From Anthoceros angustus (taxonomy: Eukaryota; Plantae; Anthocerotophyta), in NCBI GenBank assembly GCA_010909165.1, contig MU008158.1, positions 1,761,478-1,825,477 on the forward strand: a stretch of DNA of 64,000 nt. The letters are read 5' to 3'. Position 1 is the first letter of the stretch. Each line of letters starts with the position of its first letter. The position numbers and the translations under genes are program-made. This document shows, piece by piece, positions 32,638 to 58,783 of the stretch. Below the pieces are notes generated by a model. That model had not been told where the DNA came from. It was given only the letters and a program-made list of their open reading frames with translations, and searched no databases.

Positions 32638-35306
32638 TGTGGACCGCGGACTCTCCCCTGGGGTAGGAAATGAGTTAGGTTTTGTTTTTTCGTAGGCGCG
32701 GAGTAGAAAATAAGGCGGAAAGGAAGAAATAAGTCTGGAGTACTCCGGACTGCACTTCGAAGTAGGTCGAGGGACTCCGGAGTAGGTCGAAGGACTCCGA
32801 AGTAGGTCGAAGGACTCCGGAGTAGGACTCCGAAGTAGGTCGAAGGACTCCAGAGTAGGTCGAAGGACTCCGGCGTAGGCAGAAGGACTCCGGAGTGGGA
32901 CTCAAGTGGTCGAAGGACTCAAGTAGGTCGAAGGACTCCGTGAGGCGAGAGGACTCCGGAGTAGGCCGAAGGACTCCGGAGCACACTCCGGAGGAGCTAC
33001 GGACTACACTTTGGAGGGAGCCCGGATCGCACCGAGTGCCAGTAAGTCCTCCGGACTACACTCGGGCCAGTAGGATGAGTCGCCTGTAAAGTAACTTAGG
33101 AGTCAGGCGTATTTAAGCAGAGGAGCCACGTGGGAGATGCGAGAGGTGGAAGGGCATGCGTGCACTGGACCGTAGGGTTGCGATGGCGTTATGGCGGTAT
33201 TCACGCTCCGGAGTAAGCGGGCGTAAGGCTAAATGCTGTGGCTAAGGCGGAGTAAGCGGAAGCGTAAGGCGGGAGTAAGCCATGCAGGCCTCTGACAGTT
33301 ACGGGCAGCGAAGAGCCGCCCTTCCGCGCGGCGGTTACTCTCGACGGAGCGGACCGGGGCGGAGGTCATTCTTCCAAGCAACCTCGCGGCGGTTCTCGCA
33401 GTCTCTCGCGCTCAGACACCCGGCTCTCTGGCGTTGTCTTTTCGAGCGCTCAGGCACCCTCACGCGTGGCTCGTCCTTGTGGTTGGAGCGACTGACGCAG
33501 CGGCAGAGGAACGTGAGATTGTTGAGCTTCAAGCCCCAACAGCGGAACAAGAGGAGCGCGGCGATGGGACCCAAGAAAGCGGCGGAGGTGTGGGAACCAT
33601 GGCGCTTGGTGGAACGCAACATCGTCACCAAGCGCTACCCGGACTTCGGTCCTTGGCTAGAGGAGGCGGAGGAGCTGGTGGAGGACTGGCACCTGGATAT
33701 TTTCCAGTACGTATTTTCAGCCGCTATGGACCTTGACGCCTAGTCCGGAGTATGCCAAGATGCTTGCGGCCAACAAGGAGGTCCGCTTAAGAACTGCGGA
33801 GGACCCAGGAGGAGGTGGACCGTGGAGGAAGTCTGAGGCGGTCTACAACCGCCCAGAAGGAAGTAGGAGTGGTTCCAGCCGAAGGTGAAGGAAGGTGGAG
33901 GTGGCAGGCGGCCTCTTGCGACCGAGGCAGCGATCCTCCAACGGGTGGTCGATGCTCTGATCTCCGGGCGGAGGAATGCGATCAGTGGCGAAGATCATCG
34001 TCCACTAGAATATGCTCACCAAAGTGGACCACCTTGGGGATAATCTGCTAGTGTTCCTCCACGACTTACAGAGGGGGAAACGCGCCGACTGGGGTAGGAT
34101 CATATTCACCCGAATCAACCAGGAGGCCCGGAAGCTGAGAAGTGAGAAGCCACCCCCGTCGGCGTTGTCGCCGTTCATCATCCATGTGTGGGGGCACATG
34201 AACCTCCTGAAGGAGGGGGAAGAGGAGCGGGCGCTACGGAAGGGGCTGGCCGTCCTACGAGAGGCAGAGCGAGAAGGAAGAACGCAGGAGGCCGAGGTCC
34301 GTCCGACCCGGACCAAGCGGGTCCGGGAGGAGGGCAGCGGGAGGATTGGGACTCCATACGTGGAACGGACCCCTCGCCACCTGTGGAGGTGTGGAAGACA
34401 TTCCGCTTCCTCCTCTTGGTTCCCACCCAACACTGCGTGAGGAGGTAGCCAGGAAGGGAGGCTGGCGGGCGCAAGCTAATGACCCACGCTGGCCGAACCT
34501 CGCCCGGACTCGTGAAGCGAAAAGGCGGGCGCCTGTAACGCCCAAGACTGCATTCCCTTGCCCCTACCAACGGAGTGGCAGGAAGCGGAGGAGGCCGTGC
34601 GGAGGGCAGAGGGACGCCGCCGAGGAGGCGGAGGGCAGCGGCCACCCGAGCCTGCTATGTCCCCAAGCAGGAGGCAAGAGGGCTGGCCTCCTCCGGACTC
34701 CCTCACCACCTCCGAGCCCCAAGCGGAGAAGAGCGGAGAAGGAGCTAGCAGCCAAGAGGGCCAAAGAAGAAGAAGGTTCGGATCAAACACTCAGACACAG
34801 GTGTCCTCATTGGTCAACGTTGGTCCGCCTCGCTCCGGACTGGATGGCGGCCCCGACCGAGAGATGCCGGGCCGCGGACTTCTTAGGTGCCTCTCCAATA
34901 GCGACCGTGGAAGAGACACGGCGAGTTCTGGCAACCGTCATGGACGGTATGCTTTGGGGTCTCTGCAGAACGGCGGAGAAGACCCACGAAGTGGAGGCCA
35001 CCCGACGACGGATGGTGGAGCTCCAGGGTCAGGTGGAGGCGGCCCAAGCGGCCAGGAAGAAGGCGGAGTCCCTTGCGGGGATAGAGGAAGAGAAGCGCCG
35101 GAAGGCGGAGAGGGATGTCCGGTCCGTCCAACAAGATCGGACTAAGATCACACAATCTGCAGACAAGTGACAACAAAACAAGCAGGAGGCTTAGGCAAAG
35201 GCGGAGGACCTTTGCAAACGGCAGAAGCCGCTTCAAAGGAGGCTGGAGGAGGCCGCAGCAGGCGAGAAAGGGCCGGGACACAGCGAGGCTGCTCAATGAG
35301 AACAAG
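32638..35306 (+). mobile_element. Truncated giant LTR of family A (copy 1), with the best-preserved copy of the LTR-internal ORF (ATG 33564)
   Basis: Begins TGTGGACCGCGGACT and is colinear with 54579 onward. Encodes MGPKKAAEVWEPW.., KRADWGRIIFTRINQEARKL and a coiled-coil region. Confidence 0.75.
32761..32980. repeat. 20-bp minisatellite (AGTAGGTCGAAGGACTCCGG), about 11 degenerate copies
   Basis: Head-to-tail units with no unique spacers. Confidence 0.9.
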
Positions 35307-36175
35307 CGTGGAAGACCACATGTACACTAACCCTCCCACTGGTTGGTTTGAATGTTTTTTGTTTTCTTATGTTTTGTGTGATGGAGTGCTTAGGAAATGT
35401 CCGAGGCAAGGCCTTTTATACTAAAAGTTGTCCTTGGCCCATGGCAATATTACTTTTACAAATAATTAGTCCTTGGGCCTCGAACATGAATATCGGGGCC
35501 GAGGCTAGAAGGTCCTTGGACCTTGGGATTTTAGGAATAAAAATTGTCTATATAAGGTGGGGATCCTTCATTCAAAGAACATGCGCAGGGAAGTGGGAGG
35601 TGGCTAGTTCCACAACGGTGGCGAATATGGAACGACAGAATCGAGGGGGGGAGATAACAACCCTAGTTGCGGGCCGGGGTTGGCAGTGGTGAGCACTAGC
35701 GAGTTGGAGCGCAATTGGAAGAAGACCGCACCTTAATGCGTGACTGCGAGATTTCAAGGGTTCAGGCAGTTCGGCCGGGCGGACTGCAGTGAAGTTAAGT
35801 GAAGGAGGCGCATCACGACGAATGAGGAGCTCCAGAATGAAATTTCACGAGCCCAGGAACAAGTGGAGACGCCGGCACCTGGAGAAGTTCAAGAAGCTAG
35901 CGGAGAGGTATAGCGGAAGAGATGAGGCTAGGCGTGGATGGAGGAACGCCTTTGTTTGGCATCCGGTGATGAAGGGCGAGGCAACATGCGGGGGCGATGG
36001 GCAGGCACCTCCTTGCAGGAGTGAGAGGACCTCGGATAGCGGAGTGAGGTGGAGGTATTAAGGGAGAATCTTTCGGATCGGGCGTGGTAGGAGGCGAGGG
36101 AACACCCATGGGCCGGGTAGGCTGCAACGAGGCGGGCGGGTTGATTTTAGAGGCGGCATCATAGGTCAAGGGCTT

Positions 36176-38460
36176 TGTGGCGTGACTTTGTCATGGCGTA
36201 AGGCGCACAATCCCGCGTGTCGTTGTAGTAAGGAGTCCGCTCCCAAGAGAATGATCGCCCGCTTTGCCACGTTTCAATCGTTCCTCACCTTACTTAGTAG
36301 TTAGGTCTCAACACGCCTATTTATCGTTTCACCTAACTTTACCCAAGCGTTCAGAGCTGGCGGTGCGAAACGCTTAAGGACCCGTCACGTCCGTGTCGTT
36401 CAAGTTCGCTCATCCATCTAGTCCTTTCCTCTCACCCACACTACACTCATCGTCCTTGGGGAAAACGGTGGCTACGCGGTCCGGACCTCCTCCGCGCTCT
36501 GCAGCCTCTCCGCCTGCTCAGAGACGCCCTCCGGAGTTCCTCCGCTCACGTCCGGCCTCAGTCACAGCCAGCCTGCAGGCAGCAAGGGTCCCTAGGCGCC
36601 CATTCTGCACACACCACCACACACCACCACACGTTAGGGGTCGTCACCAAGACCTTGACTGCCTCGGTGTCGGCCGCTCAGTGACTCAGACTGCGTTAAC
36701 AAGAAGGCACCCAAGAGCTCGCTGTGACGCTGCATCAACACCAAGAGAAAGATGCTTTTATTCAGAAAGCCTCGCCCTCTTATACTACGCCAAGGTCACG
36801 GCTTATTACACCTCTATTCATGAGGGGCGACTCATTTCTTCCCCTAATCGGCCGCTTACTATTCTCCCTATTCCTCCTATCTCCGGCCGATTGGGTGGGA
36901 TTGCTCTTGGCACCGGCCCAAAGCCCAGCCTTGCGCAGGCGCACCAATCGGATGATCTGCGAGGCGGGACCCCTACCTCCCGAGTGCGTCTGCGCTCGGC
37001 GGCCGGCTGACAAACGTCTGCTAAGTCCTCCTCCTCCTCCTCTCTTATCTCTGGCGGGCCCTGCGAAGGGCCCTCCAAGAGATGGATCTGGGCTGGTGAT
37101 CGGTGGCTCTCCCACTCCACAGTGACCTCGGGACCCGTCTCGACTCGGGAGTCCGGACCTCTAGGTCCGCCTTCCTCTCTGGGTCCGGGTCCCGTGTCCG
37201 GCCTTCTTCTCTCGAGTTCGGACCTCGGGGTCCCGGATTGCCTCTAGGGTCCACTTCGGGCCCAACCCTTCCTTGGAGTCCTGGACCTCGGTCGGTCAAG
37301 TCTGAGGGACCTCTAAGTCCGCCTTCCTTGAGTCCGGACCTCTAGGTCCGCCTTCCTTGAGTCCGGACAAAGTCCGGACCCACTCTGGTTTTGCCTCCTC
37401 ACCGGGCTGATCACTGCCTCACCCACGAGCCCTCCCTTGGTTCCCGAAAGTGCCCGGTTGCGCCCTTCCTTTGCCTTCCCAGGCCTTCTTCTCGAGTTCG
37501 GACCTCGGGGTCCGGACTTGCCTCTAGGGTCCGCCTCGGGCCCAACCCTTCCTTGGAGTCCTGACCAGTGGTCCGGCCTGTCTAGAGGGACCTCAAGTCC
37601 GCCTTCCTTCAATGACTGATTCGGCTTTCCTCGGGAGTCCGGACAAAGTCCGGACCCCACGCTCTCACTTTGCCTCCTCACCGGGCTGATCACGGGCTCA
37701 CCCAGCCCTCCCTTGGTTCCCGAAAGTGCCCGGTTGCGCCCCTTCCATCGCCTTCCCAGGGCCCTCCTCCTTCCGTGCCCAAGTGCAGTGCTTACCTTGC
37801 AAGTGACCTTCCTCCGTCACTCCTCCCACTCCACGAGTGCAGGACCTCGTGGACCCTGATCTCGACTCGGTCCGGACCTCTAGGTCCGCCTTCCCCTCTG
37901 AGGGTCCGGGTCCCGTGTCCCAGGCCTTCTTCTCGAGTTCGGGACCCTGGGTCCGGAACTGCCTCTAGGGTCCGGGGTCTTCGGGCCCAACCCTTCCTTG
38001 GAGTCCTGACCTCGGGGTCCGGGTCCGGACCTCTAAGTCCGCCTTCCTTGAGGCGGCCAGGATTCGGCTTTCCTCAGGAGTCCGGACAAAGTCCGGACCC
38101 ACGGGCTCCTGGTTTTGCCTCCTCACCGGGCTGATCACGGGCTCACCCACTGAGCCCTCCCTTGGTTCCCGAAAGTGCCCGGTTGCGCCCCTTCCACGGC
38201 CTCCCCAGGGCCCTCCTCCCTTCCTTCCGTGGAGGTGCAGTGCTTACCTTGCAAGTGACCCTTCCCTCCGTCAGGCTCCTCCGCCGCCTCCCTGCGCTGC
38301 TGTTGTCATCAAACAAGCAGCTCCTAGGTCCCGTGGTTGCGCTGTCCCCGGGTCCTTCCTCCCTCGCTCCTCCTTCCGACCTTGAAGTCGCTCACACCTT
38401 GTGGTGCCTAAGAGATGCCCAGTTACAACCCGGTGCATCTCACGGAGGATCCCAGCAATG
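36176..38460 (-). mobile_element. Inverted, 5'-truncated family-A LTR fragment inserted in element B
   Basis: Reverse complement ends AAAGTCACGCCACA at 36176. Homologous to 46200-46858 and 57500-58783. Internal sub-repeats at 37398, 37677 and 38122. Confidence 0.72.
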
Positions 38461-41400
38461 GCACCTTTACAACGGAGAGGGTGGAACGAGACCAGGAGGA
38501 TGACTTTCAAGATGAGGCCCTGTTTGCAGTAGAAGTGGAGGGCGAGAGGGCCAAACCCACCGAGAGGGGAAGGCGAGGATGGCCTCAATGAGAAGGGGAA
38601 AAAGCTTCACAAAATGACGATCCGGAAATTTGTGAGCTCTGGCATGGCCAAATTCTCAAAACCTCTAAGGTCAGGGCTACGGACTTCCTTGGGGTTAGGA
38701 ATAAGTGGGGTTTTGTTTTTTGTAGGTTGGAATAGTAAAATAAGGCGGAAAAGGAGGAATAAGCACGGATGGCGCCTGGACGGACTCCGGAGTAAGCAAC
38801 GGACCCCACCACTATGGAAACTCGGACTACACTCGAGCAAGTCCGAGAAGCTCGGATACCCTTAGTCTGGGTAAGTCCGGACCCCACTCCGGGTCGAAAG
38901 GATAAATGCGCCGGGAAAGCAACTTTGAATTGAGTCGAGAGGATGACTAGGCGGCGCCACGTGACGGCCCCGAGTGGAGGACGAGCATGCAAGCAGTTGT
39001 GACAGTAGCCAAGCGTTAAGGGCAGTATTCACGCCCGGCAAGCAAGGAGTACAGAGTACGCCATATACAGAGTAAGCAACAACAGAGGGACAAAGTAAGC
39101 CATGCACTTCAACATGGACAGAAGAGCCGCCTTCCGTGGCCAAGCATTACTCAAGAAAGAGCGGGGAAGTCATTCTCCCAAACCTCTGCGCTGATTCTCG
39201 CCTCCCTCGCCCTCCGACATCCGGCTCATGGAGTCTCTTGCGCCAAGGTGTCCCCACGCCGCGATTTCGACGGAGGAGCTAACGAACGGAGGAGAGGAGC
39301 GCAGCGACGCCTCAAATTCCGTGAGCAAGGCACAAGCAAGACGACGGGCGATGGCACCCAAGAAAGCGCTTGAGGAGGTAAGCGTGGCCCTCGGAGGAGC
39401 GCAACATTGTGACAGGGCGCTACCCCGACTTTGGTCCATGGCTCGAGGAGGCGGAGGGACTGGTCGAGTGGCACTGGACATCTTCCGTGCGGTCTGGACC
39501 TATGATAGGCCACCATGGTCCGAGAATACGCCCAAGATGTCGCGGTGGCAAGGAAGGAGGTCCGCTCAGAACTTATGGAGGACCCAAAAGATGGACGGTG
39601 GAAGTCCCGAGGCGCCTATCGCCGCCCAAAGGAGGAGGTAGGAGGTGTGGTGCGAGCCCTCAAGGTAAAGGGAAGGTGGAAGCGGCTAAGGCGGCCTCCC
39701 ACGCCTGTGGACACAGCGATCCTCGATGGTCGCCCGGAGCTCCCGGACAAGAGGGTAGGCGGCAGGGCGAAAATAATCGCCCATCGGAACATGCCGACCA
39801 AGGTGGATCACCTTGGTGATAATCACCGGTCTTCCTCCACGACCTGCAAAAAGGCAAGCGCGCAGATTGGGGGAAGATAATTCACGGAAGGATCAGTCAG
39901 GAGGCGCGCAAACTGAGGTGTGAGAAGCCACCTCCATCGGCGCTGACGCCGTTCTTGATCCATGTATGGGGGCACGCGGACCTCCTGAAGAAGGGTGAGG
40001 AGGAACGAGCCCTGAAGAAAGGGTTGGCTGCCCTACCGGAGGTGGAGGGAGAAGGCCAGGAAGCAGAGGTCCGGCCAGTCCAAAGCAAGAGGGTCCGGGA
40101 GGAAGACGACTGGGAAGGCATTCCGGACTCCATACGCTTGGAACGGACTCCCTCGCCACCTAGGGAAGTTTGGGAGGAGATTCCCCCTTCCCTCCTTTTG
40201 GTGCCCTCCGAGCCAAGACAGGAGGAAGCTGGCAGAAGGGCGCGGCTCCAAGACCGCCGGATAGCCAACAACCACGACGGTGCCGAACCCCGACAAACTC
40301 GGGAGTCAAGAGGCTAAGACGGTGCCGCTTACCAACGCAAAGACCTCGAAGGTGCCGGACTTACCCCGCCCACGGAGTGGCAAGAGTCAAGAGGCGGTAA
40401 GGAGGCGAAAGGGATGCCCAAGGAGCGGAGGTCACCGGCAGCCACCCGAGCCATCCTGCCTCTGTGGAGAGGCAAAGAGCCTGACTCTCACCCCTCCGAA
40501 GCCCTGTGAGAAAGAGGGCACAAAGGAGCAGAGGCCTGAGGGCCAAGGAGGGTGAGGTCCCGACTACACCACTCGACTTGAGGTCCCGACAGGTCCGAGA
40601 ACCCACCCCGACTCCCGGATCTGGTATGGAGGTCCTGACGGACCGAGATGCCGCGCCCACCAAGGACTTCCCTCACATCTGTGGCCGTGGAAGAAACACG
40701 AGTCTTAGCTACCGCCATGGACGGAATGTTGGGGCCTCGTGCAGAGAAGGCCCAGTGGAGGCCACCCGAGGAGGATGGTGGAACCCAAGAGCAAGTGAAG
40801 GCCCGAGGCAAAGGAAAGGCGGAGTCCCTCGCCGGATCGAGGAAGGAAACGCGGCGGAGCGCGAGGCCCGAGCGTCAGACGACAAGGCTCTTCACCACGC
40901 GTACAAAGCAAGCAGGAGGCCCAAGCGGCCGAGGACCTTGCAAAGGCGAGGTCGGAAGGAAGCGGAGGAGGCGAGGCGGCGGAGGCGGCGAGGCGGAGGC
41001 GGCGGCTAGACCTACACCAAGCCCGTGAGGCTAAGGTGAAGGCGGCGAGGCGGAAGCCGCGAAAGAGTCGAGGATCACCACCGACGTGATCGGGCCGGTG
41101 GAGGAGAAGGCCGAGGCTAACTAAGGCCGCACTGATGGAGCAAGGGTAACTCGGGAAGGGAGATGGAGGCCAAGACTCGGGAGATAGGAGATCTCCGAGC
41201 ACCGCAGGAAGTAGAGGAGGCGGCGAGATGGAGGACAAGAAGGACACGCTGGAGCTACAACCCAAGATGCGCTTGAGCAGTGATTCTCAACGAGAGAATC
41301 CACGACTTGAGCACGAAATAGAGTGCCATCCGTCTCAAGACGGAGGAAAATCGGCGACTATCCAAGGAGTTGGACGCTGCCAGTGCGAAGGCGGAAGAAG

Positions 41401-44400
41401 CCGGTCGGATGGATATACCGGTCCGATTGGAGAGGAGGCGGACCCAATGAACGAGGAGGAGGAGCGCGAGGAGAAGCTGCCCTTATCCAAGGAGAAAGGG
41501 GAGCCGGGCTCCATGGCGGGCCATGGCGGCAACGATAAAGGGAGGAGGAGCGGAGCGGGGAGCAAAGGCTGCAGGAGGTGAGTCCGGACCACACCAGGAC
41601 TTGAGGTCCCTGACCACGAGGTCCGGACTCGCTCCGGGGCTGTGTATGGCGGTCCTTGACGGACCGAGATGCCGCGCCCACCAAGGATTTCTGGGCATCT
41701 CCCAGTGGCCGTGGAGGAGACACGGCGGTCTTAGCTTCGTCATGGGCGGTATGTTGTGGGGCCTCGTGCAGAGAAGGCCCGAGGAAGTGGAGGCCACTCG
41801 GAGGAGGATGGTGGAGCTCAAGGCGGTGGGGCCGGAGGCAAGGAAAGGCGAGTCCCTCGCTCGGATCGAGGAAGGAAAGCAGCAGGCGGCGGAGGCGGCG
41901 AGGCGGCGGAGGCGGAGGTCCGGACCAAGGCTCTTGACTACATGAGCAGTGAAACAAGCCGAGGCCCAAGCAGTGAGGACCTCTGCAAGCGTGGCGGAGG
42001 TCGGAAGGAAGCGGAGGAGGAGCAGCGGCAGGCGGCGCCGCGACTTGGCGGCGGGCGGCTAGACCTACACCAAGCCGGTGAGGCTAAGGTGAAGGCAGCG
42101 GAGGCGGAAGCATGACAAGGTCGGGGATCACTACTGGCGTGATCGGGCCGGTGGAGAGTCGGCGGAGGCGGCCTGCTAACGAAAGGCGTGATGGGCGAGC
42201 AAGGTAACTCGGGAAGGGAGATGGAGGCCAGCACTCGGGAGATAGGAGATCTCAGTGCAGTGCGAAGTAGAGGCGGCGAGATGGAGGGCAGCAGGACAGC
42301 TGGAGCTACAACTCCAAGATGCGTCGGGCGGTGATTCTCAGCAGGAGAATCCACGACTTGAGCACGAAATAGAGTGCCTCCAGCTCCGTCGAAGGCGGAG
42401 GAAAATCGGCGACTATCGAGAGTTGGGCGTTGCCGGTGCGAAGGAAGCGGAAGAAGCCGGTCGGATGGATATACGGTCCGATTGGAGAGGAGGTGGCGGA
42501 CCTTGAGTGCAGGTAAGCGGAGGAGGCGCTAGAGGAGGCTCCTTATCCGATTACGGGAGGCGGAAGGGGCTGGGCTCCATGGCGGTCGATTGGTGAGCTC
42601 TGACAAAGGGAGGAGGGCGTTGGCGGCGCTGCGAGGTGTCGGAGGCGCTTTGGTGGCTTCAAAGTGCCGGCGGTTGGCAAGCTGGCGGCGGAGGCAGCGT
42701 GGGCGAACAACACTCCTAACACTTATGGCGAGGGAGACGGTGCCCGCACACGTGGAAGAGGCAATTCAACAAGTCGACCACCGCCTACCAGGCACCTCGA
42801 AGGTGCGGTACCCTTACCACCTTGCAGGTGTAGCGAAGAGGCGGTGAGGAGGCGAGAAGGGATCTTGCCCAAGGAGGCGGAGGTCAGCGGCGCATCCGAG
42901 CCGGTCACATCTCCAGGGAGAGGAAAGGACAGCTCTCGGACTCCTTCACCTCAAGCCCGGGGAGAAAGAGGCGGAAAAGGAGCTCGCCGGAGGGCCAAGG
43001 AGGTGAGTCCGGACCACACCAGGACTTGAGGTCCCTGACCACGAGGTCAGGACTCGCTCCGGGGCTGTGTATGGCGGTCCTTGACGGACCGAGATGCCGC
43101 GCCCACCAAGGATTTCTGGGCATCTCCCAGTGGCCGTGGAGGAGACACGGCGGTCTTAGCTTCGTCATGGGCGGTATGTTGTGGGGCCTCGTGCAGAGAA
43201 GGCCCGAGGAAGTGGAGGCCACTCGGAGGAGGATGGTGGAGCTCAAGGCGGTGGGGCCGGAGGCAAGGAAAGGCGAGTCCCTCGCTCGGATCGAGGAAGG
43301 AAAGCAGCAGGCGGCGGAGGCGGCGAGGCGGCGGAGGCGGAGGTCCGGACCAAGGCTCTTGACTACATGAGCAGTGAAACAAGCCGAGGCCCAAGCAGTG
43401 AGGACCTCTGCAAGCGTGGCGGAGGTCGGAAGGAAGCGGAGGAGGAGCAGCGGCAGGCGGCGCCGCGACTTGGCGGCGGGCGGCTAGACCTACACCAAGC
43501 CGGTGAGGCTAAGGTGAAGGCAGCGGAGGCGGAAGCATGACAAGGTCGGGGATCACTACTGGCGTGATCGGGCCGGTGGAGAGTCGGCGGAGGCGGCCTG
43601 CTAACGAAAGGCGTGATGGGCGAGCAAGGTAACTCGGGAAGGGAGATGGAGGCCCGGCACTCGGGAGATAGGAGATCTCAGTGCAGTGCGAAGTAGAGGC
43701 GGCGAGATGGAGGGCAGCAGGACAGCTGGAGCTACAACTCCAAGATGCGTCGGGCGGTGATTCTCAGCAGGAGAATCCACGACTTGAGCACGAAATAGAG
43801 TGCCTCCAGCTCCGTCGAAGGCGGAGGAAAATCGGCGACTATCGAGAGTTGGGCGTTGCCGGTGCGAAGGAAGCGGAAGAAGCCGGTCGGATGGATATAC
43901 CGGTCCGATTGGAGAGGAGGCGGACCCAATGAACGAGGAGGAGGAGCGCGAGGAGAAGCTGCCCTTATCCAAGGAGAAAGGGGAGCCGGGCTCCATGGCG
44001 GGCCATGGCGGCAACGATAAAGGGAGGAGGAGCGGAGCGGGGAGCAAAGGCTGCAGGAGGTGACCGAGGCCGCCTGGCCTCGGAGTCCGCCCCGGCTGGC
44101 AACTGCGACGGAGACGAGCAACGCAACACTCCTAACACTTATGGCGAGGGAGACGGTGCCCGCACACGTGGAAGAGGCAATTCAACAAGTCGACCACCGC
44201 CTACCACGCCGAGCCTGGAGGCACCACGCCACCCCGAGGTCCGGACCTCGAGGTCCGGACCAAGGAAGGCGAGAAGAAGGCCACGGGATAGTGCGGCCAC
44301 GGGGACCTGTGGAGGAGGCGGAGCGAGGAGGAGCGGAACGAGGAGCGGAACGAGGGAGCGCGGCAAGCGGAGGAGGCACCCCGCACCTCACCATGGAAGA

Positions 44401-46861: not shown

Positions 46862-46876
46862 TGGCGCTGCCGGGAA
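46862..46876 (+). other. Primer-binding site, tRNA-Asp type (Athila-like); second copy at 48002
   Basis: CCACA-TTT-TGGCGCTGCCGGGA here and CCACA-TTT-TGGCGCCGTT at 48002, compared with the Athila PBS TGGCGCCGTTGCCGGGGA. Confidence 0.75.
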
Positions 46877-47095
46877 TGAAATCGTCTGCAAGCGTGGATG
46901 CGTGGAGGGCGTGAGGTAGTTAAGGACGGTGCTAAGAGAGCCGGACGCCAGATCGCCAGAGCGCCCGAGCGCAGAACGTGAAAGAGACGAGCTCGGCGAG
47001 GACACCGCCCACGAAGTGCGGTGGACTTGTCGGATCGTGAGGAAGAAGTAGCACCACGCCAACGAAGGTAGGAGCGCCTCAACCCACCGGGCACG

Positions 47096-50000
47096 ATGGC
47101 AACAACGCCACTCAAGCGCATCTATATTGGAGGAAGAAGGAGATGCGAGACCTTTGTGGAGGATTTCGTGTCCAAAGCCAACTTCAATGGGGAGGGATCG
47201 ATGCACACCATCCAAATTTCCAAGGGGTTCTCCGAGGGGCTCAATGGTACCGGAGAAAGTACCCACCACCGAGAATGCCCCACCCGCAACCTTCGCTTGA
47301 AGGATGCCTTCTTGAACGATTCCGTGGAATTGACCAAGAAGGCTACGCCTTGTCCAAACTCGAGAACTCAAGCGCAAGACGGAGAAGTTGGGATCAGACA
47401 TCGAGCGGTTCTATGCCCGAGATCGACATCCAACCCATACCACGATGCAAGCGACGTGGTTCGGCTTAGCCTAAGCCATGGCTAAACACGTCTTTGCTTG
47501 GCGAGAAAGATGGGCAAGGCGGTCGGGCGGAGAATTACGAAGAATCGATCAATAAAAACCGAGGAGGCAGGAGAAAGAAGAAGAAGAAACGGGGTTCGGA
47601 CTGAGGAGGAAGAGTCTAAGAGGAGGATGATGAGACCGAGGTGTCGGAGGAGGAGGAAGAGGACTGAGAAGAACGAGGATGCCATGGAAGAAGAAGTATC
47701 CCCGCAAGAAATAAGAAGAAAAAGCCCGAAAAGAAGCGAGGGTGGAAGAAGGAGGTTATGATACCGACCGGGCGAGAGGTTCACGACCCAACCTGAAAGA
47801 AGGAGGGGCCGAGGAAGATTTGGAACGGGTGATGAAGAGGGTGGAGGAGTTGACGATCAACCAAGTGTTAAGGTGAAGTGGACCCAAGAAAGGTGAGAAT
47901 CGGTGAGCGCGGCAAGCGGAGCTATCATTCTCTCTTGGGAGCGGACTCCATACCACAACGACACGGATTGTGCGCGGCTGTCCATCGGTCGCGCCACATT
48001 TTGGCGCCGTTAAATGAAATCGTTCGTAAAGCGTGGATGCGTGGAGGGCGTGAGGTAGTTAAGGACGGTGCTAAGAGAGGCGGACGTTGTGGCCAGGCTC
48101 CGGCGCGAGCCACGTGAAAGGCGGCGAGCTCGGCGAGGACACCCACGGGTAAGTCACGGTGGACTTGTCGGATCGTGAGGAAGAAGTAGCACCACGCCCG
48201 GGCGGAGTAAGGGGCGGTTCCTCAAACTTTGCGGCGCGACGATGGCAACAACGTCGACCAAGCAAGCGTACTCCCTCTTTGGAGGTAAGAAGGAGAGAGC
48301 GAAACCTTTGGAGGATTTCGTGTCGCGGCGAACTTCAATGGGGAGGATCGGATGCACTCATCCGGTGTTCCAAGGGTCCTTGGCGGGCGGCTCGGTACCA
48401 GGAAGTATCGGCCAATGCTCAACCTTGAGCGTTGAAGGATGCCTTCAGAACGATTCCGTGGAATTGACCAAGAAGGCTACGTCTGTCCAAACTCGAGAAC
48501 ACAGGCGAGGCGGAGAAGTTGGGATCGTACATCGAGCGGTTCTATGCCCGAGATCGACACCCACCCACACCACCATGCAGTGATACGTTGGTTCGCGGCC
48601 TTACCTAAGCCAATGGCTAAACACGTGCTGCTGTTGGCGAGAAAGATGTGAGCAAGGCGGTCCGGGCGGCGGAGAATTACGAAGAATCGATGCACCAACG
48701 GCGACCGAGGGCGCCTCTAGGAGGAAAGAAGAAGAAGAAGAAACGGGGGTCGGACTCCGAAGATGAAGAGTCCTCGGAAGAGGAGGATGATGAGACTGAG
48801 GTGGCATCGGAGGAGGAGGAAGAGGACTCTGAGGAAGAATCCGAGGATGCCATGGAAGAAGAAGAACCTCGTCGAAGAAATAAGAAGAAAAGCCCGTGGA
48901 GCGGAGGGTGGAAGAAGGAGGTTATGATACACTGCGGTCGAGAGGTTCCTGACCCAACCTCTGAAAGAAGTAGCGAGGAAGATTTGGAACGGGTGATGAA
49001 GAGGGTGGAGGAGTTGACGATCAACCAAGTGAAGGACAAAGAGCGCGGAAAACACCACCACGGCGAACCCATCTCGTGTGCGGTATGCCACCAGATGGGC
49101 ACTCAAAGTAACCCCTCAAGCCGCGGAACCGTGAGTACGATTAGGAGGAGGCCGAGGAATGGGAAGAGGCCTATCAGTGCAAGAAGCCCTCCGGGCCGCG
49201 ATATCCCAAAACCATGTATCCGCCAACCGGAGGTCCATCCATACACCGCCCGATGCAAACCGCATGGGAGCCCTTCGTATCCTCCGCACGGTGGTCTTGG
49301 AACTGTGGGAACCCCGCCATTACTCCAACGCTGTCCCACGCAGGTAATGGAGATTTTGAACTTGTGTGGGGATTGTAAGGAAGGTGGCGGCGATGTGTCC
49401 CAACTCGCTCAAGGTGCGATACGCCACACCAAGGGGAGAAGGACCACCAACGCCACCTCCTAAGACTGCTACAAATTGAGGATGCACAACATGGAGTGGG
49501 AAGAGCCAAGGGATGGAACAAGAAGGTAATGGGGAGGAGAAGGGATCGGAGGAGGAGAAGGGATCGGAGGAGGAGGAAGAAGGAGAGATCAAACCTTCGT
49601 GGAGGATTTCGTGTCCAGCCAACTTCAATGGGGAGGGATCGGATGCACCATCCAATCCAATTCCAGGAACCCGCTGGTACCGGAGAAGTATCCACCCAGA
49701 ATGCCCCGCAACCTTCGGTTTGAAGGATGCCTTCTTGAACGATTCCGTGGAATTGACCAAGAAGGCTACGCCTTGTCCAAACTCGAGAACTCAAGCGCAA
49801 GACGGAGAAGTTGGGATCGACATCGAACGGTACGCCCGAGATCGACATCACCCACACCACCATGCAAGCGGTACGCTGGTTCGCAGCTGGCTTAGCCAAA
49901 CATGGCCACGCCGCGAGAAAGATGTGAGCAAGGCGGTCCGGGCGGAGAATTACGAAGAATCGATGCACCAACGAGGAGGCGCAGGAGGCAAGAAGAAGAA

Positions 50001-53000
50001 GAAGAAACGGGGTCGGACTCAAGATGAAGAGTCCTAAGAGGAGGATGATGAGACCGAGGTGGCATCGAGGAGGAGGAAGAGGACTCGAAGAACCGAGGAT
50101 GCCATGGAAGAAGAAGAATCGCAAGAAATAAGAAGAAAAGCCCGAGGAAGCGGAGGGTGGAAGAAGGAGGTTATGATACCGACCGGGCGAGAGGTTCACG
50201 ACCCAACCTGAAAGAAGGAGGGGCCGAGGAAGATTTGGAACGGGTGATGAAGAGGGTGGAGGAGTTGACGATCAACCAAGTGAAGGACAAAGAGCGCGGA
50301 AGGCCACCACGGTTCGAACCCATCCGTGGTGTGTGCGCCAAAGATGGGCACTCAAAGGCGACGCCTCCGCCTGCTGAACCGTAGAGTACGATTATGGGGA
50401 GGAGAGGAATGGGAGGATGCTTACGTGCAAGAAGCACCGGGCCGCGATATCCCAAAACCATGTATCCAACCGGAGGTCCATCCATACACCGCCCGATGCA
50501 ACCTCGAATGGGAGGACCAGGAATCCTTCGGCACGGTGGTCATTGAACTGGGGAACCCGCATTACTCCAACGCCCATATCCCACCGCATAAATGGAGATT
50601 TTGAACGGAGTGGGGATTAAGGCAGTGCACATGGCAAAGACGTGTCCCAACTCGCTCAAGAACGGTGCGCACGCCACCCAAGCGGGAGCCATCACCACGC
50701 CTCCTTCCTAAGCGCCATACAAATTGAGGATGCACCAAGTGAGTGGGAAGAGGCGCCAAGGGACTTGGAACGGATGGGTAGGAGGAGAAGGCGGATCCGA
50801 GGTACGGAAGTGTCAACCCGGTGTCAAGGAGCAAAGGAGAGGAGGCGCTTTAAGAGGAAGAAAATGAAGAACCAACGGATACGAGGACGGACACTGCAGG
50901 AGGCAACCCGCCTAAGGAAGGAGAGTTACTCCGGCAGAGGCCGGGCCGGGTCCGACGTTGGGAGAAACGCCCACCGCAACACGCCTGATTTCCCGAGAAG
51001 TGGAGATGTTGGAAGAGATCCGACAGATGGAGTGGTCCGACCACCACAGATCAAGTGACCCGGAGGACTCGGGAGAGGACGCAGCATGGGAAGGAGCCAC
51101 CCGCCTTTAATGTGGCGACCGATGATGGATCAACAACATTTGGTAACACCGAGGATTAAAAGACAACCCGGCCGGCAGAAGTCCGGAGGGCCATCGGAGA
51201 CACAACCACGCGAAACCGTGAGTAGCACAAGAATGTGGAGGTGGGTGGTCTCATACGACCTGGCGCCAAAGTGGTACAAGTGAGATTGGGTGTGTATCAA
51301 GAACGCTGGACACGGGTCCGAGTCAACCTCATCACAAGCCACCGCAAGATTGGGGTTCATCGCTTTGAGCCATCCACCAAAATTGGGCTTCACATCCTTG
51401 AGCCATCCACCAAAGACTCGATGGCGGATATGAGATCCGCGGGAGTTGTCCGAGTCCAAGCCACCATAGCCCCTATACATTGGATCAACCGGACGCCGGA
51501 CCATTAGGTATGAGGTGTGTGCCGTGGCTGTTTGCCAGTTACACTTTGGAAGGAAGGAGATTCACTTCAAGCCGGATTGGGACCCTAAGGTCGAGAGGAG
51601 GGTGGCTCACCGGAGCAAGGACACCTATTGTGGGGAAACCGTGAGCACCACGAGGGGTACACCTCCGAGGATAATCGGACGATGAAAGAAGCCGAGGAGG
51701 CACTTTCGCCAAGATCACATGGTCCGAGGAGGAGATGGACTACCGAGGATGCCTTTGGCGAGGTGGACGAGGAGGTCGATTGCTTCCGTGCGAGGAACAA
51801 GAGAGGAGGGAAGGAAGAAGAGGGTCCAGCAAAGATGAAGAGTGGGACCAAGGAGTAACACGCTTCACCTCCGACGACTCTTCGAGAATGGGGATGCGAG
51901 AGGACGATCCCGAGTGGAGGACGAGGGGTTTGGACGCAGCCGAGGCAAAGACGAGAACGGAGACGGTGAACCCGACGACGTGGAAGAAGTGGAGGTCCGC
52001 CAGCAAATTCTCAAGTTTAAGAAAGGCATGCCTCCTGACCAAGGAAGGACTAAAGCATACCGGGGAGTTTTATGAGGTGTTCGCCTTCAAGGTCACGGAC
52101 ATGAAGGGCATTCAAGAAGGGGAGAGCAGATCGACGATTTGAAGCTGAGTGCCATCAATCCGACAATACAAGCTCAACCCCAAGTATTCGATCAAGGTGA
52201 AGGAGGTCCTTGATAAGTACCGGAGGCAGACATCATTTTCCCCATCGCCAACAATGAGTGGGTCGCATTGTGGTGGTTCCCAAGAAACACCAGACAAATT
52301 CGGTATGCCAAGATTGAGGAAGCTCAACGTCAAGAACTGAGAAGGACCACTTCCGATGCCATTCAGAGACGACATTTTGGACAAGGTGGTGGACGGACTA
52401 CTTACTCCTTCCCGGATGGCTACTCCGGATACAACCAATTGCACCTAAGGGAGTGACCGACAAGACGACCTTCACTACGGAGTGGGGTACGCTTGCCTAC
52501 AAGAGAAGTGCCTTTGGGATGACCGAGCGCTGTGGTCGCTCATGCGTATGGTGACCAACGCCTTCCGTGACTTCGAGGGACTTCATGGAGATATTCCCGG
52601 ATGATTTTTGTGTGCATGGGGAGCGTGACAAACACCTTGGACATCTAAGAAGGTGCTTGAGCGCCGCCGAGACCCAATTGAGCCTACACCGAGAAATGCT
52701 ACTTTGGAATGACGGAGGGAATCTTGTGATCGTGTCGGCTGAATCGAGGTGGACCAGACAAGGTCCGGTCATCCGCCTCCACCACCGACGAACCTAAAGG
52801 AGCCGAGAGGTTTCGAATGGTGGGATACTACGCGGTTTATTAAGGACTTTGCAAGAGGGCGCTAAGTTGATGTAACCATGGGAAGGAGGAGGTTTGGACC
52901 GGTCTCGTGAGCGAGAGGAGGCCTTCCGGATTTAAACACCTTGGTAAGCGACCTTCTAAGAGGACCGGATCGAGCAAGAAATTTCATGTGTATGTAGATG

Positions 53001-54545
53001 TGTCCGCTTGCTATCGGAGTAGTGCCGAGCCGCATGAGACAAGCGGGGATTATCCCGATACTACCGGACGATACCACCCACGCTGAACGAAAATACACAA
53101 CTACAGCGCCAAGCACCGGGTATGGTATATGTCAAGAAGAAATTCACACTACCGCTACCCAAAGGAGTTTGTGTTCTATGTAGACCACTTTGCTCAAGCA
53201 TCCGGTGAATAAGGCGGACCGTCCGACGGATAGCAAGGTGGATATTGTTGCCGCAGGAGTTCACGTCAAGTGGAAACAAGACAAGGGAGGCAAGACCAAA
53301 ATGCATTTCGTCACGATTGAAAACAGTGTTGAGAGATCGTGAAGATGCGCCCCTGATGAGACATTGGTGCCGCAGAAGTACAACCGGAGGAGCCCACGAC
53401 CAACCCCAAGCTACGAGAACCGGCACTTAGCGTGAGAAGGGAGGGTCCGCGTCATCCGAACGAAGAAATGAGGTACACTGGGAATGGAGCTTCTCAAAAT
53501 CACTGGATGAGGGAGGCATTCGTGCACTATGCTCGACCCTTCGTAATGTACAACGGTGTGTGTTCAAATTAGGGACGAGTAGAACGAAGGTACTTACAAC
53601 CGCAGAGACAGTGAGCGCCGCCGGGAATGCACGAAGGATTGGGGAGGACACTACGCAAAGACAGTCACCACCAAAAGATTTTGAAGCGGATACGTGGCCA
53701 ACAATGTATGGGGACACCCACCAGGAAGAAGTGTGATGCTTGTCCGATCGGAAGCCAACCCCGACACAATGGCCGCTAGTACCGATATTGGCACCGCATT
53801 TTGAAAAGTGGGGTATTGACTTCTGGACCTTACAACGACAGGCACACACAAAGCGATACATTTTGGTGGCAACGACCATCGCACTGTGGGTAGAGGCGAA
53901 CGAGAACGGACTCGCAAGCACGGTGGCAAATTCCTTTATGAGAACATCATCACTATGGGGATGTCCGCCGCAGCTGGTGAAGATAGAGGAACCCATTTCC
54001 TCAATGATGTGATCACCGCCATGACGGAGTATTTTGGCATCAATCATCGCAAGACGGCACCCTACAACCCTAAGGCTAATGGGTTGACGGAGAAGACAAT
54101 GGACTCATCCGCAGATCTCGAATAAACTTAGCTAACTATGCCGATCGATACTGATCGACTGGCCGTGATGGGCAGAGAAGGTGACCACGCAACGAACTCC
54201 TGACTTTAACCTATGGGCATTCCCGTAATGCCGGTGGAGTTTGAAGTGCCCACGAGTAATGATGGAGAGCCGAACGAGGAGAGCCACCGAGCGCTTTTGG
54301 GGTTTTGTCCAAGACACGGAGGGTGGAAGAAGCTCACAAGATGCAACTTGTAAAACCAAGTGGCATGACGCGCCTTCGAATCGGGAGTATGTGAAGGGAC
54401 CCTCCTTTATGATAGTCTATGCATTTTCCGCAAACTTCACCGAGATGGATGGGTCCTTACCAGTGGTGCAAGTGTGACAACGGGTCCGCTCAACTCCGGC
54501 TGATGGAGGCCCACCCGTGAACGGTGGCGTGAAGTATCATGTTAG
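47096..54545 (+). pseudogene. gag-pol of element A (gag start repeated 3 times; many frameshifts)
   Basis: RT motifs DGYSGYNQ, KTTFTTEWG and FMEIFPDDFCV; RH motifs YVDV and HAERKYTT; INT motifs PLVPILAPHFEKWGIDF, KFLYENIIT, DRGTHFLN and HRKTAPYNPKANGLTEK. Confidence 0.88.
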
Positions 54546-54566
54546 TGTTGGCGAGACGCCAATGAT

Positions 54567-54576
54567 GAGAAGGGAG
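54567..54576 (+). other. Polypurine tract of element A
   Basis: GAGAAGGGAG then TA then TGTGG, the same arrangement as element B's PPT at 59017-59029. Confidence 0.75.
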
Positions 54577-54578
54577 TA

Positions 54579-57500
54579 TGTGGGCGGACTTCCCTGGGAG
54601 TTAAGAAATAAGTAGGGTTTTGTTTTTTGTAGGAATAGTAAAATAAGGCAGGAATAAAAGGGGTGGCGCCTGACGAGGCTCGAGTATACTCCACTGAGTG
54701 AACAACACCACGGACCCGACTACACTGGCAAGTCCAGAAGCCGACACCCCGAGTAACGGATAAGTCCTAACCCACCCAGTCAAAACAGATAAGTACGCCG
54801 GGAAAGCAACCTAGAGCGAGAGGATGACGAGGCGGCGCCACGTGGACGGCCCCGAGTGGAGGTCGGCATGCAGAGCCAGACTGTAGCCTCGCGGGCCGCA
54901 GGCAGTATTCACGCCTGCCGCGCGGCGCGCGCGTAAGGCTAGAGTAAGCGCGAGGGTGTATGCACTTCGACAAACAAGAGGCGCCTTCCGCCATATTTCA
55001 AGAAAGAGCGGGAGGGGAGTCATTCTCCAAACCTCTTGCGCCTCGCCCGCCTCCCGCATCCCTGGCGAGTCTCTTCGCGCCTGGGCCCCACGCACCGCGA
55101 TTTCACGGAGGCGGAGCAACGCAACGAGGAGAGGAGGAACATCGCTCAAACCGTGACAAGGCACAAGAAGAGAGAAGCAATGGCACCCAAAAAGCCGGAG
55201 GAGTGGGAGCCATGGACGGAGGAGCGCAACATTGTGACCCGCGCTATCCGACTTTGGTCCATGGCTCGAGGAGGCGAGGGAATTGGTCGAGGAGTGGCAC
55301 TGGACATCTTCCAAATGGTTCGACCTTGATAGCCACCATGGTCCGGAGTTTGCCCAAGATGCCGGGCGATCAACAAGGAGGTCCGATCCAAGAACCTCGG
55401 AGGACGATGGACCTGGAGGTCCCGAGGGCCTACCGCGCCAAGGAGGAGAAGGTGTGGTGCCGGAGCCCTTAAGGCGGAAGGTGGAAGATAGCCCCACGCC
55501 GTGGACAGCCGAACGATCTCGACAACCGGATGGTTGATATCCGAGCCGGACAAGAGGTGGGTAGCCCGGTCCATTGAACATTTCACCAAGGTGGATCACC
55601 TTGGTGATAACGCTGGTATTCCCGCACGCCCGCAAGGCAAGAGCGGATTGGGGAAGGATTATCTTCGCCTGGATCACCAGAGGCGCAAACCGAGGAGCGA
55701 GAAGCCATCGGCCGACGCCCTTGATCCATGTATGGGGCACGCGACCTCAAGGAGGGAGAGGAACGAGCCCGAAAGGGCGCCAAGAGAGGTGGAGGGAGAG
55801 GTGGGGCGCCTCAAGCAAGAGGGTCCGGGAGGAGGACGATCGAGGATTGACTCCATACGCTGGAGCGAACCCCTCACCACCTGGGAAGTTTGGGAGGAGA
55901 TTCCCTCCTTTTGGTGCCCTCCGAGCCAAGACAGAGGGAGCCGGCAGAGGCGCATGGCCCGCACCGGCCGGACAGCAGCCAACAACCACGACGCCCCCGA
56001 CAAACTCAACGGGAGTCAAGAGGCGGAAGACGCCGCTTACCAACGCAAAGACCAAGGTGCCAGACTTCTACCCCGCCCACGGAGTGGCAAGAGGTCAAGA
56101 GGCGGTAAGGAGGGCGAAGGATGCCGGAGCGGAGGTCACCGGGCAGCTCACTCGAGCCGGCCCCTGCTCCCAGTGAAGGGGCCAGCTCTGACCCTCACCT
56201 CCGAGCCCTGTGAGAAAGAGGGCACAAAGGAGTTAGAGGAGGCCAAGAGGGTGAGTCCCTGACCACCACCTGTGACCGAGGGTCCCGATCCGAGAACCCA
56301 CCCCGACTCGCCCGGATCATGGAGGTCCTTGGCGAGAGATGCCCGCGCCCACCAAGGACTTTGTGCCGTGGCCGTGGAAGAAACACGGCGGGCCTTAGCT
56401 GGACTGCTTTGGGGTCTCGTGCTGAGAAGACCTGTGAAGTGGAGGCCACCCGAGGAGGATGGTGGAACCCAAGAGCAAGTGAAGGCGCCTGTGAGGCAAA
56501 GGAAAAGGCGAGTCCCTCGCCGGATCGAGGAAAACGCGGGCGGAGCGCGAGGCCCGGCGCGGTTCAGCAGACTAAAGGTTCTTCACACGCGAACACCAAG
56601 CAGTGAGGCCCAAGCGTGAGGACCTGCAAACGAGGGGGAGGTCCAGAAGTGAGAGGAACGACAAGGAGAGCCCGGACTGGCGGAGCGGCCCGGCCACCCA
56701 AGCGAGGCTAAGGTGAAGGCGGCGAGGCGAAGTCAAGCAAAGAGCGACCGGATCACTACCGACGTGATCGAACCGTGGAGAGAGTCAGCACCGAGGCTAA
56801 CTCAAGGCCGCAGTGCCATGGAGCGTGCAAGGGAGGAGATGGAGGCCAAGACTGGGAGATAGGAGATCTCCGAGTACACAGTAGAGGAGAGGCGCAGATG
56901 GAGGATGAAGGACACGCCGAGCTACAACCCAAGATGCGTCGGAAAGCAGTGATTCTCAACGAGAGAATCCATACTGAGCACAAATAGAGTGCCCAGTCCG
57001 CCTCAAGACGGAGGAAAATCGCGACTATCCAAGGAGTTGGACGCTGCTGCCGCATGTATGAGCCGGAGGAAGTGTGGGGCCTGATGGATATACCACCGAT
57101 TGAGAGGAGGGCGATGGAGCTAACGGGTAAACTGAGGGAGGAGAGCGAGAGGAGAACAGCTGCTCCTTATCCGATTACGGAGAGGAGGGGCTCCATGGCG
57201 GGTAGCCGCGAAAGGGAGGAGGAGCCGTGGAGTGAGCAACAGGCTGCAGGAGGTGACCGAGGCCGCTTTGTAGCCTCAAGGGAGTCCGCCTGCCCTGGCA
57301 AGCCCCAACGGAGAGAGTGGCAACAACACTCCCACCGCCGAACACTTATGAGGGAGTACGGTGCCCGCATGTGGAAGAGGCAATTCAACAAGTCGATCCG
57401 ACTTTGCCTATTACCACGCTGAGCTCAAGGCGAGGCACCACGTCACCCAGGAGGACCCGACTGACGGAAGGCCGGAGGAAGGCGAGGAAGAAGGCCCCGG

Positions 57501-58783
57501 GATAGTGGCCACGGGGACCTTGGGGGCGACGACGAGGAGCGTGAGAGGAGCAGCCGAGGAGCGGAACGGATGCGTGGCGAGGGGCACCCCGCACCTCACC
57601 ATGGAAGGAGGGCCAACGAGGAGTCCGGGCGATCGAACAGCGGAAGGACTGAGGGAGAGCCACTGAGGAGTCCCGTGAGGGAGGAAACCCTGGGGCGGAG
57701 TCTGACTCGAGGTCCGGACCAAGGAAGTCGACCGAGGTCCGACTCGAAATAAGTCCGGACCAAGTCCGGACTAAGAAGACCGACCCCGAGGTCCCGACCC
57801 TGAGACAAGGCCTGACCTAGCCGCCTGACTGAATAAGCCGACTCGGGTTCGAGTCGACAGACCTCGAGGTCCCATGGCAAGAAGGAGGAGCCCCTTCGAC
57901 TTACGCTTAGGGGAGAGATAGCCGGTGGCCCCACCGCAGGGACCTGTGGGAGGCTGGGAGGATGACGTCAGTAACGGGCTTGTCGACCGCCACGAGCCCA
58001 ACCCGACAGTGATTCCGGAGAGGAGGGCCCACGGATCATCCGATTGGGAGCGCCACAACTGTGACGGGGATTGACCACCCATCCCGAGGCAACCTGTGAC
58101 CTTCCCACACCGGCCAAAGGAGATAGGGGAGGAAATAGGATGGTAGGCGGCCGATTAGGGTATACCGAATGCCATCACCGTAATAGGGTGTAATAAAGAC
58201 GCCACCTTGGGCGAGATAAGAGGGCCGAGGCCGCCTAGTAAAGCATCTTTCTTGGTGTTGATGCCGTTTGCACTACGCCTCTTGCTAACGCGAGTCCCGA
58301 GTCACCGAAAGGTGCACGACGACCCGGAGAGATCGATCAAGGTCCCGTGACGGACTTAACGTGGTGGTGGTGTGTGGAAGGACGATCGAGGACCCTTGTT
58401 CGTCCGAGAGCGCGGTCCAACGCCGAGCGGACCGAACGTGTGGAGCCGGAGGTACTGAGGGTGCAGAGCGACGAGAGGCCCGCGAGCAACGAGGAGGTCC
58501 CGACTGTAGCTACTTGCTTTTCTTTCAAGGTTGATAAGTGTAGAGAGAGCGGCGAGAGGAACGGATCAAGAAACGAGTGACGAACGGCACGCAAACGGTC
58601 CTTAAACGCTTGGCCACACCGGCCCGTGAACGTTATAAATAGGGTGTAAACGAAGATTGAGTGTTAAGGTGAAGTGGACCAAGAAAGGTGAGAATCATCG
58701 AACGGAAAGCTATCATTCTTTGGGAACGGACTTCCCACAACGACATCGGATTGTGCGCGCTGTCCATCGAAAGTCGCGCCACA
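54579..58783 (+). repeat. 3' LTR of element A, 4205 bp
   Basis: TGTGGGCGGACTT...AAGTCGCGCCACA termini (10/13 inverted match). Colinear with 38669-46858. TATAAATA at about 58634. Confidence 0.75.
55180..57600 (+). pseudogene. LTR-embedded extra ORF (N-terminal plant-transposon-protein-like domain + coiled coil), frameshifted; end approximate
   Basis: MAPKKPEEWEPWTEERNIVT.., TKVDHLGDN and ADWGRIIF. Homologous copies start at 33564 and 39351. Confidence 0.7.

Follow-up and report, generated by a model that had tools for sequence, protein, structure and literature searches.

An accessory gene probably located within the long terminal repeat of a Ty3/gypsy retrotransposon in Anthoceros angustus

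The element described here is a Ty3/gypsy retrotransposon in a 64,000-nucleotide stretch of the Anthoceros angustus genome (assembly GCA_010909165.1, contig MU008158.1, positions 1,761,478 to 1,825,477 of the forward strand; hereafter the window, with positions counted from its first letter). Taken jointly, it is on balance probable that its long terminal repeat (LTR) starts at a purine tract behind integrase, that this LTR holds an accessory gene with an N-terminal domain under selection, and that the encoded protein is a DNA-binding regulator of its own LTR. The existence of a long LTR holding the gene is very probable taken by itself and, given such an LTR, the gene is very probably still functional. 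The window is a noisy long-read assembly in which repeats are full of small indels and host genes are intact.

Limits of the long terminal repeat

The features that define the repeat and its copies are as follows.

54561 to 54578, plus strand: polypurine tract (PPT) AATGATGAGAAGGGAGTA, adjoining the integrase end; contigs from a public DNA run (X1) cover the junction bins deeply
54579 to 58783, plus strand: 3' LTR, TGTGG...CCACA, 4205 bp as assembled
58634 to 58641, plus strand: TATA-like box, at -150 relative to the LTR end
38671 to 46858, plus strand: upstream LTR sequence, four overlapping blocks jointly covering LTR coordinates 7-4205
46862 to 46876, plus strand: primer binding site (PBS) TGGCGCTGCCGGGAA, four bases beyond the LTR end; second copy at 48002
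47864 to 47998, plus strand: duplicate of the final 124 bases of the LTR, then PBS and gag
32638 to 35308, plus strand: copy 1, the 5' part of a diverged LTR, with TGTGG start and unrelated flank
36176 to 38410, minus strand: inverted, 5'-truncated LTR copy (fourth copy), with CCACA end at 36176 and unrelated flank

The 4.2-kb repeat has the features of an LTR: TG...CA ends, a PPT before the 3' copy and a PBS after the 5' copy. Integrase ends at ~54545, followed by AATGATGAGAAGGGAGTA and then directly by TGTGG at 54579. When the 3' LTR is mapped onto the window, this start is common to three copies (32638, about 38671 and 54579) whose upstream flanks are all different. No TG stands at the start of the copy at about 38671, whose upstream flank is the start of another integrase. 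The LTR end CCACA occurs at four places (46858, 47998 and 58783 on the plus strand, 36176 on the minus strand). At both 46858 and 47998 it is followed by TTTTGGCGC.. of the PBS and then by gag; the other two ends adjoin unrelated DNA, that at 58783 preceding the end of another integrase. The PBS, which we take to be of the tRNA-Asp type, is nearly identical in both noisy window copies and in L001, one of the metagenomic relatives described below.

Contigs of run X1, which is possibly the source sample and so tests the assembly and adds no independent biology, cross the AATGATGAGAAGGGAGTA-TGTGG junction at a summed depth of up to about 1500. Among the X1 contigs listed, one unrelated flank is joined to TGTGG at the long-LTR start (3 contigs). 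An internal control for this start is provided by a second family (family B), whose ~350-bp LTR at 59030-59380 begins with TGTGG next to a nearly identical PPT; it follows immediately on an integrase end, and there is no extra open reading frame (ORF). A second family-B LTR copy, at 35309-35665, interrupts the ORF of copy 1.

A pattern scan finds the TATA-like box at -150 in two of the three LTR ends examined. This position predicts short R and U5 regions, and hence a U3 region of ~4.05 kb that makes up nearly the whole LTR. The length of the LTR rests on its termini and on one continuous 3' copy. That copy is ~250 bases short of the first upstream block (block A) across the first 1.5 kb; the true length is at least 4.2 kb and, given the bases lost in assembly, likely 4.4-4.7 kb.

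The upstream LTR sequence extends over 8.2 kb. Its blocks A to D correspond to LTR coordinates 7-2678, 1672-2818, 1519-3816 and 2559-4205, and the block adjoining the PBS is unbroken for 1.64 kb. By substitutions, block C is 92% identical to the 3' LTR and the identity between blocks C and D is only 87%, which indicates that at least two or three copies contributed to a mosaic. The duplicated LTR end at 47864 starts 26 bases past the start of the TATA-like box, approximately at the predicted start of R, and shows an AGTG microhomology with gag; it may be a template switch or an assembly artefact.

Copy 1 is 79% alike by substitutions and represents a diverged subfamily. It covers LTR coordinates 6-76 and 445-1979 and is then broken by the short family-B LTR. 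Upstream of its ORF, at 32761-32988, it carries a TCCGGA-rich tandem array of a 20-bp unit (12 copies) that does not occur as an array in the other copies. The purine-rich sequence behind the family-B LTR (35666-36175) has a coiled-coil-like reading and no DNA match to the other copies; it is possibly a diverged continuation of the copy-1 ORF.

An earlier, sequence-only reading of the window had placed the PPT-TGTGG junction at 54579, right after integrase, and the end of the repeat at 58783, and both limits are borne out. Its proposal of an accessory gene inside the U3 of a ~4.2-kb LTR survives the tests provided by the flanks, the PPT and PBS junctions and X1. It had also recognized three copies with a common start and unrelated flanks, and these stand, though the fourth, inverted copy was missed. 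The CCACA end before a PBS upstream of gag is present as described (46858 and 47998), but what was taken there for the same repeat is the 8.2-kb mosaic. As the case against itself, this reading had offered an LTR of only ~0.87 kb starting near 57919. Such an LTR is contradicted by the unbroken 1.64-kb block at the PBS, by a pattern scan that finds no PPT followed by TG near 57919, and by the X1 flank at the long-LTR start.

A related alternative is an arrangement like that of Athila, in which an ordinary extra ORF follows pol and precedes a short LTR, with the upstream copy derived from tandem elements or from misassembly of noisy reads. The stuttered, mosaic character of the region and the lack of a target-site duplication (TSD) are in its favour. 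However, in a tandem array each ORF should be preceded by a PPT and the end of an integrase, whereas two of the three window copies have unrelated flanks and X1 adds another. In addition, the 3' LTR has no PPT followed by TG behind its ORF (the one later match, at 46548 in block D, is not common to the copies), and the PBS-adjoining block already includes the presumed tail of the ORF. The arrangement in metagenomic relatives, discussed below, also bears on this alternative, which overall appears quite unlikely.

It is still harder to regard the 4.2-kb unit as a separate DNA transposon lying beside gypsy elements, a disfavoured and very improbable explanation. The unit does have short inverted ends (TGTGG/CCACA), and the name of the Pfam family discussed below reads 'transposon protein'. 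Against this, it lies exactly between PPT and PBS, the PPT junction is covered at high depth in X1, and the homologues of its ORF are extra ORFs of gypsy elements.

Internal region

46859 to 54560, plus strand: gag, protease, reverse transcriptase (RT), RNase H and integrase, frameshifted

The order RT-RNase H-integrase identifies the element as a Ty3/gypsy LTR retrotransposon. RT lies at 52065-52662, RNase H at about 52690-53300 and integrase at about 53550-54545, as located by tblastn of intact relatives (integrase match 53548-54098). The pol domains of these relatives are confirmed by Pfam; a Pfam search with 20 broken gag-pol fragments from the window gave no matches. Only about 20-30 bases separate the integrase end from the PPT, which leaves no room for a chromodomain, so the element is a non-chromovirus. 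There is no extra RNase H either, the RNase H-to-integrase spacing being 501 bases against 483 in relative L003, which itself lacks such a domain. The protease-RT spacing was judged by eye. Gag is present in three overlapping copies (46736-50802) that are 90-96% alike by substitutions and may reflect stuttered assembly or nested copies. Without duplications the element measures ~14 kb.

The gene in U3

55180 to 57450, plus strand: U3 ORF of the 3' LTR, frameshifted; 3' end estimated by eye
39351 to 41581, plus strand: U3 ORF in block A, frameshifted; conserved domain at about 39351-40110
33564 to 35308, plus strand: U3 ORF of copy 1; conserved domain at about 33564-34300
57451 to 58633, plus strand: U3 behind the ORF, with repeats containing the palindrome GTCCGGAC

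The ORFs of all three copies lie on the sense strand and start 600-930 bases inside the LTR, with ATGs at 33564, 39351 and 55180 that all read M(G/A)PKK. The motif TKVDHLGDN..ADWG.II..RI.QEARKL..P.SAL.PF.IHVWGH is present in the U3 ORF copies. These start codons and the motif had been reported in the sequence-only reading; the sense ORF of ~2.4 kb that it ascribed to each complete copy is open in none of them, all being frameshifted.

Purifying selection acts on the N-terminal domain. Where copies 1 and 2 align without gaps, a single codon phase takes 67 of the 118 mismatches (null 50.1, standard deviation 2.7, p 0.0005), and between copies 1 and 3 the corresponding count is 46 of 80 (null 38.2). 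The region upstream of the ORF, used as a control, shows 44 of 98 (null 42.5). Over 141 codons of the domain, the ratio of non-synonymous to synonymous substitution rates (dN/dS) is 0.094, with the other five frames giving 0.27-2.3. This value comes from four of six gap-free blocks, those in the motif-bearing frame, and the frame of the longest block is independently fixed by the profile match described below.

The frameshifts themselves have read error as their likely cause, since letters absent from the window ORF are present in X1 contigs and pol is equally broken and ~5% short (2049 bases against 2160 in the intact homologue, by tblastn with intact relatives). This bears on a further possibility, in which the long LTR is real but carries the gene as a passenger that a single shift in priming brought in and that is now decaying or shortened, with selection that is older or stems from a few master copies. 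Every copy in the window is broken, selection is seen only in the N-terminal ~250 codons, and a 4-kb U3 is costly to copy, all of which would fit such a history. However, the low dN/dS spans two subfamilies (79% alike) that both have the gene in the LTR, which points to selection while it was there, and the state of pol and the X1 letters point to read error behind the breaks. The passenger explanation is therefore considered improbable, and a functional gene in U3 is preferred.

Direct protein searches were largely uninformative. Word-based searches with a piece of the ORF and with a piece of integrase found nothing among longer proteins, which is weak evidence, and PDB sequence searches gave no matches. 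A search for related loci with the U3 ORF yielded 454 pattern matches, none of which was confirmed. The sole phmmer match among 1.84 billion proteins (P0001) is a proline-rich tandem repeat and was discarded as chance.

Relatives and the origin of the gene

Eight metagenome loci were fetched by a pattern of two integrase motifs. Their pol pieces compare with the window mostly at 26-60%. A sense ORF follows integrase in five of the eight, and the contigs of the remaining three end too soon to tell. These ORFs are unannotated and reach up to ~960 codons (L001:4406-6631, L003:428-2089, L005:2210-5098, L002:281-895 and L008:1-570). They share one N-terminal domain and have unrelated tails, which read as coiled coil in L003 and L005 and as acidic and proline-rich in L001.

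A profile built from the metagenome ORFs alone ranks two LTR copies first among 2556 translated windows. Copy 1 scores 20.0 bits (E 4.5e-5) and block A 11.6 bits, the next window scoring 4.3 and 10 shuffles 2.0-4.4. In hhalign, the window domain matches the relatives with a probability of 66% and an E of 5.6e-5. Relative L003 in turn matches positions 9-168 of the 177 in Transposase_32 (PF20167), with E 2.5e-4 and 21.4 bits against a cut-off of 45. PF20167 is reported from an extra ORF of a sunflower Athila element, and the domain has been related to Athila ORF1 (PMC11728184). Judged from these sequence comparisons, the U3 gene belongs distantly to an accessory family that is already known, and its location is unusual. 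The sequence-only reading had guessed at a plant transposon-protein domain, and the relatives lend this support: through the profile and hhalign link, and through the L003 match to PF20167 below its cut-off.

A G-rich tract lies right behind integrase in all five ORF-bearing relatives, and that of L003 is almost identical to the window PPT. A second tract, GGGG..CTA followed by TG, lies behind the ORF in each of the three relatives that reach that far (L001, L003 and L005). In L001, whose contig is a collapsed circle, the second tract and the PBS bound ~1 kb; the contig of L005 ends 20 bases past the second tract, as expected at the start of a repeat. A PPT and TG behind the ORF in these three relatives, together with the end of the L005 contig, count in favour of the alternative of an ordinary ORF before a short LTR.

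The relatives with purine tracts on both sides of the ORF lead us to infer a switch in priming. The ancestral order would be that of the relatives: pol, purine tract a, ORF, purine tract b, LTR. A shift of plus-strand priming to tract a, away from tract b, would turn all of the intervening sequence, promoter region and gene included, into U3, which would then be copied into both LTRs in each cycle. There is about an even chance that the gene entered U3 through such a switch to the upstream tract, which is the simplest reading. Because the genomic RNA would start near the 3' end of the LTR, expression of the gene would require either splicing or a promoter of its own within the initial 600-900 bases of U3. 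With a promoter in early U3, each LTR, whether 5', 3' or solo, would be a complete gene cassette. Retention of the gene in every solo LTR would follow from LTR biology.

Proposed function

The palindrome GTCCGGAC is matched 27 times in the LTR blocks; 23 of these matches lie either downstream of the ORF or within the inverted copy. Neither gag-pol nor 31.8 kb of host DNA contains any. The expectation from mononucleotide shuffles is ~0.1 per block, the blocks being related copies and not independent. Structural models are poor (AlphaFold pLDDT 60.6 and 42.6), Foldseek gave no match with E below 0.001, and a fold search (VIA) with the window fragment returned helical bundles only. With the L003 model (pLDDT 43), the sole long alignment of the fold search was to VANC21 (178 residues, most of the domain, the other 49 rows having 37-88), which is a very weak hint of structural likeness and does not amount to evidence. 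VANC is reported to resemble MAIL1 and to dimerise through a coiled coil (bioRxiv 10.1101/2024.04.02.587720).

Based on these observations, the best single guess among functions, put forward tentatively, is that the U3 protein is a DNA-binding, anti-silencing factor of its own LTR. A Transposase_32-type domain with a coiled coil would dimerise on the GTCCGGAC palindromes in U3 and, like VANC, shield the active LTR from silencing. More speculative, and doubtful as a whole, is the extended model in which an Athila-type accessory gene became an LTR cassette by a PPT switch, so that every LTR, including solo LTRs, would encode a VANC-like dimer together with its sites, and deleted elements could activate the family in trans.

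The gene could alternatively be functional in U3 while its protein serves particle assembly, nuclear import or integration targeting. Such roles have been proposed for plant extra ORFs, whose functions are not known (PMC7264820), and in CRM elements a targeting motif is encoded beyond the PPT (PMC3605345). However, the U3 protein is separate from integrase, and palindromic arrays lie in the same U3. The antisense extra ORF products that have been reviewed (PMC7264820, PMC11963269) are nuclear or predicted DNA binders, though with other domains. These roles are accordingly thought unlikely, and regulation of the LTR by its own protein remains the preferred reading.

Evidence that weighs against this interpretation

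A number of observations speak against a functional, regulatory gene in a long LTR. With regard to the repeat, there is no clean LTR pair in the window, and the upstream mosaic may be misassembled. No TSD is found in the window, where the left flank consists of the first part of another integrase and the right flank of an integrase end, and the two do not join; nor does the window contain a complete solo LTR with a TSD. With regard to the gene, there is no open 2.4-kb ORF, and the longest homologous stop-free piece used has 142 amino acids (34012-34437). The middle and C-terminal parts show no codon periodicity (p 0.23-0.93), in comparisons mostly between close copies dominated by read error. 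For this reason the long coiled coil of the sequence-only reading, like the ORF end near 57450, is a by-eye reading only, and the dN/dS below 1 that it proposed to test across the ORF is seen for the N-terminal domain. ORF pieces from the window match no relevant Pfam family, and PF20167 is matched by only one of five relatives, below cut-off.

With regard to origin and function, TG stands directly after the first purine tract in L002 and L003. These families might also have long LTRs holding the ORF, which touches on the tract that the relatives use. Tandem repeats are common in long LTRs and need no protein partner. The VANC21 row ranks 46 (Z 2.6, root-mean-square deviation 7.0) and is absent from the Foldseek list.

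Neighbouring sequences

Host genes occupy 2041-29895, each in a single long frame, and include BLOC1 subunit 2, an amidase-TPR protein (presumably Toc64-like), TAF7, a GMP-PDE-delta/UNC119-like protein and an F-box protein. For TAF7, the best-scoring named full-length matches are from liverworts and Sphagnum (70-79%), with nothing close, which places the host among seed-free land plants. A probable other LTR of ~265 bp lies at 31896-32175, followed by a motif that we take to be a Met-type PBS; copy 1 is inserted ~460 bases downstream of it. At the other end, 62180-64000 contains a 35-bp tandem array and then a further probable mobile element.

Implications and comparison with known systems

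LTRs are usually treated as non-coding, and the formation of solo LTRs as the host's way to kill an element. A whole selected gene in the LTR would be doubled with each insertion and kept after recombination. Relatives with two tracts offer a simple, testable route by which an LTR could grow by kilobases in one step. The gene groups, if only weakly, with Athila ORF1, whose function is an old question, and candidate binding sites beside the gene make a binding test direct. Annotation that restricts extra ORFs to the internal region would miss genes in U3.

The element shares several features with the Athila clade, whose sense 3' extra ORF is Athila ORF1 or Transposase_32 (PF03078, PF20167): the lack of a chromodomain and of an extra RNase H, a putatively Athila-type PBS, a size of ~14 kb and a sense extra ORF behind pol. 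In REXdb, Athila elements range from 7.3 to 22.8 kb and mostly have a tRNA-Asp PBS (PMC6317226). In contrast to Athila, where the ORF lies between pol and the PPT, the ORF in the window is downstream of the PPT, in U3. The element is not filed as Athila because of this difference in position and because a tree of RT, RNase H and integrase is not possible. It is likewise a non-chromovirus gypsy element of a seed-free plant without extra RNase H, as are Selgy (4.4-6.7 kb, Ala PBS) and Phygy (7.7-10 kb, Trp PBS), for which no extra ORFs are listed (PMC6317226). Its size of ~14 kb and its extra ORF set it apart from both.

The plant extra ORFs that have been reviewed sit in the internal region (PMC7264820). 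Those of Retand TRP28 are antisense, between pol and the LTR (PMC11963269). Retrosat2, RIRE3 and RIRE8 combine very long LTRs (>3 kb) with an extra ORF, as here, but their ORF0 is upstream of gag-pol, apart from the LTR (PMC3485330). VANC of VANDAL elements and the MAIN/MAIL1 plant mobile domain likewise combine a domain encoded by a transposable element with a coiled coil; VANDALs, however, are DNA transposons, and the structural hint here is very weak, with no sequence match.

In retroviruses, MMTV sag and HIV nef are protein genes within or overlapping U3, but they are unrelated to the present gene and encode much shorter proteins. Plant precedent for coding downstream of the PPT comes from CRM chromoviruses, in which the integrase tail (CR motif) reaches into the U3 of the 3' LTR, and precedent for two PPTs from Bongo3, which has an additional PPT at the pol end (both PMC3605345). 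In CRM the coding sequence is the tail of the gag-pol frame, whereas the present ORF is a gene in its own right, ~2.3 kb long, and starts at an ATG 600-900 bases inside the LTR. A literature search covering titles and the openings of abstracts, with subscription papers mostly outside it, found no plant retrotransposon with a stand-alone gene in the LTR. The accessory family itself and coding into U3, as in CRM, are known; a stand-alone accessory gene in the U3 of a plant LTR may be new.

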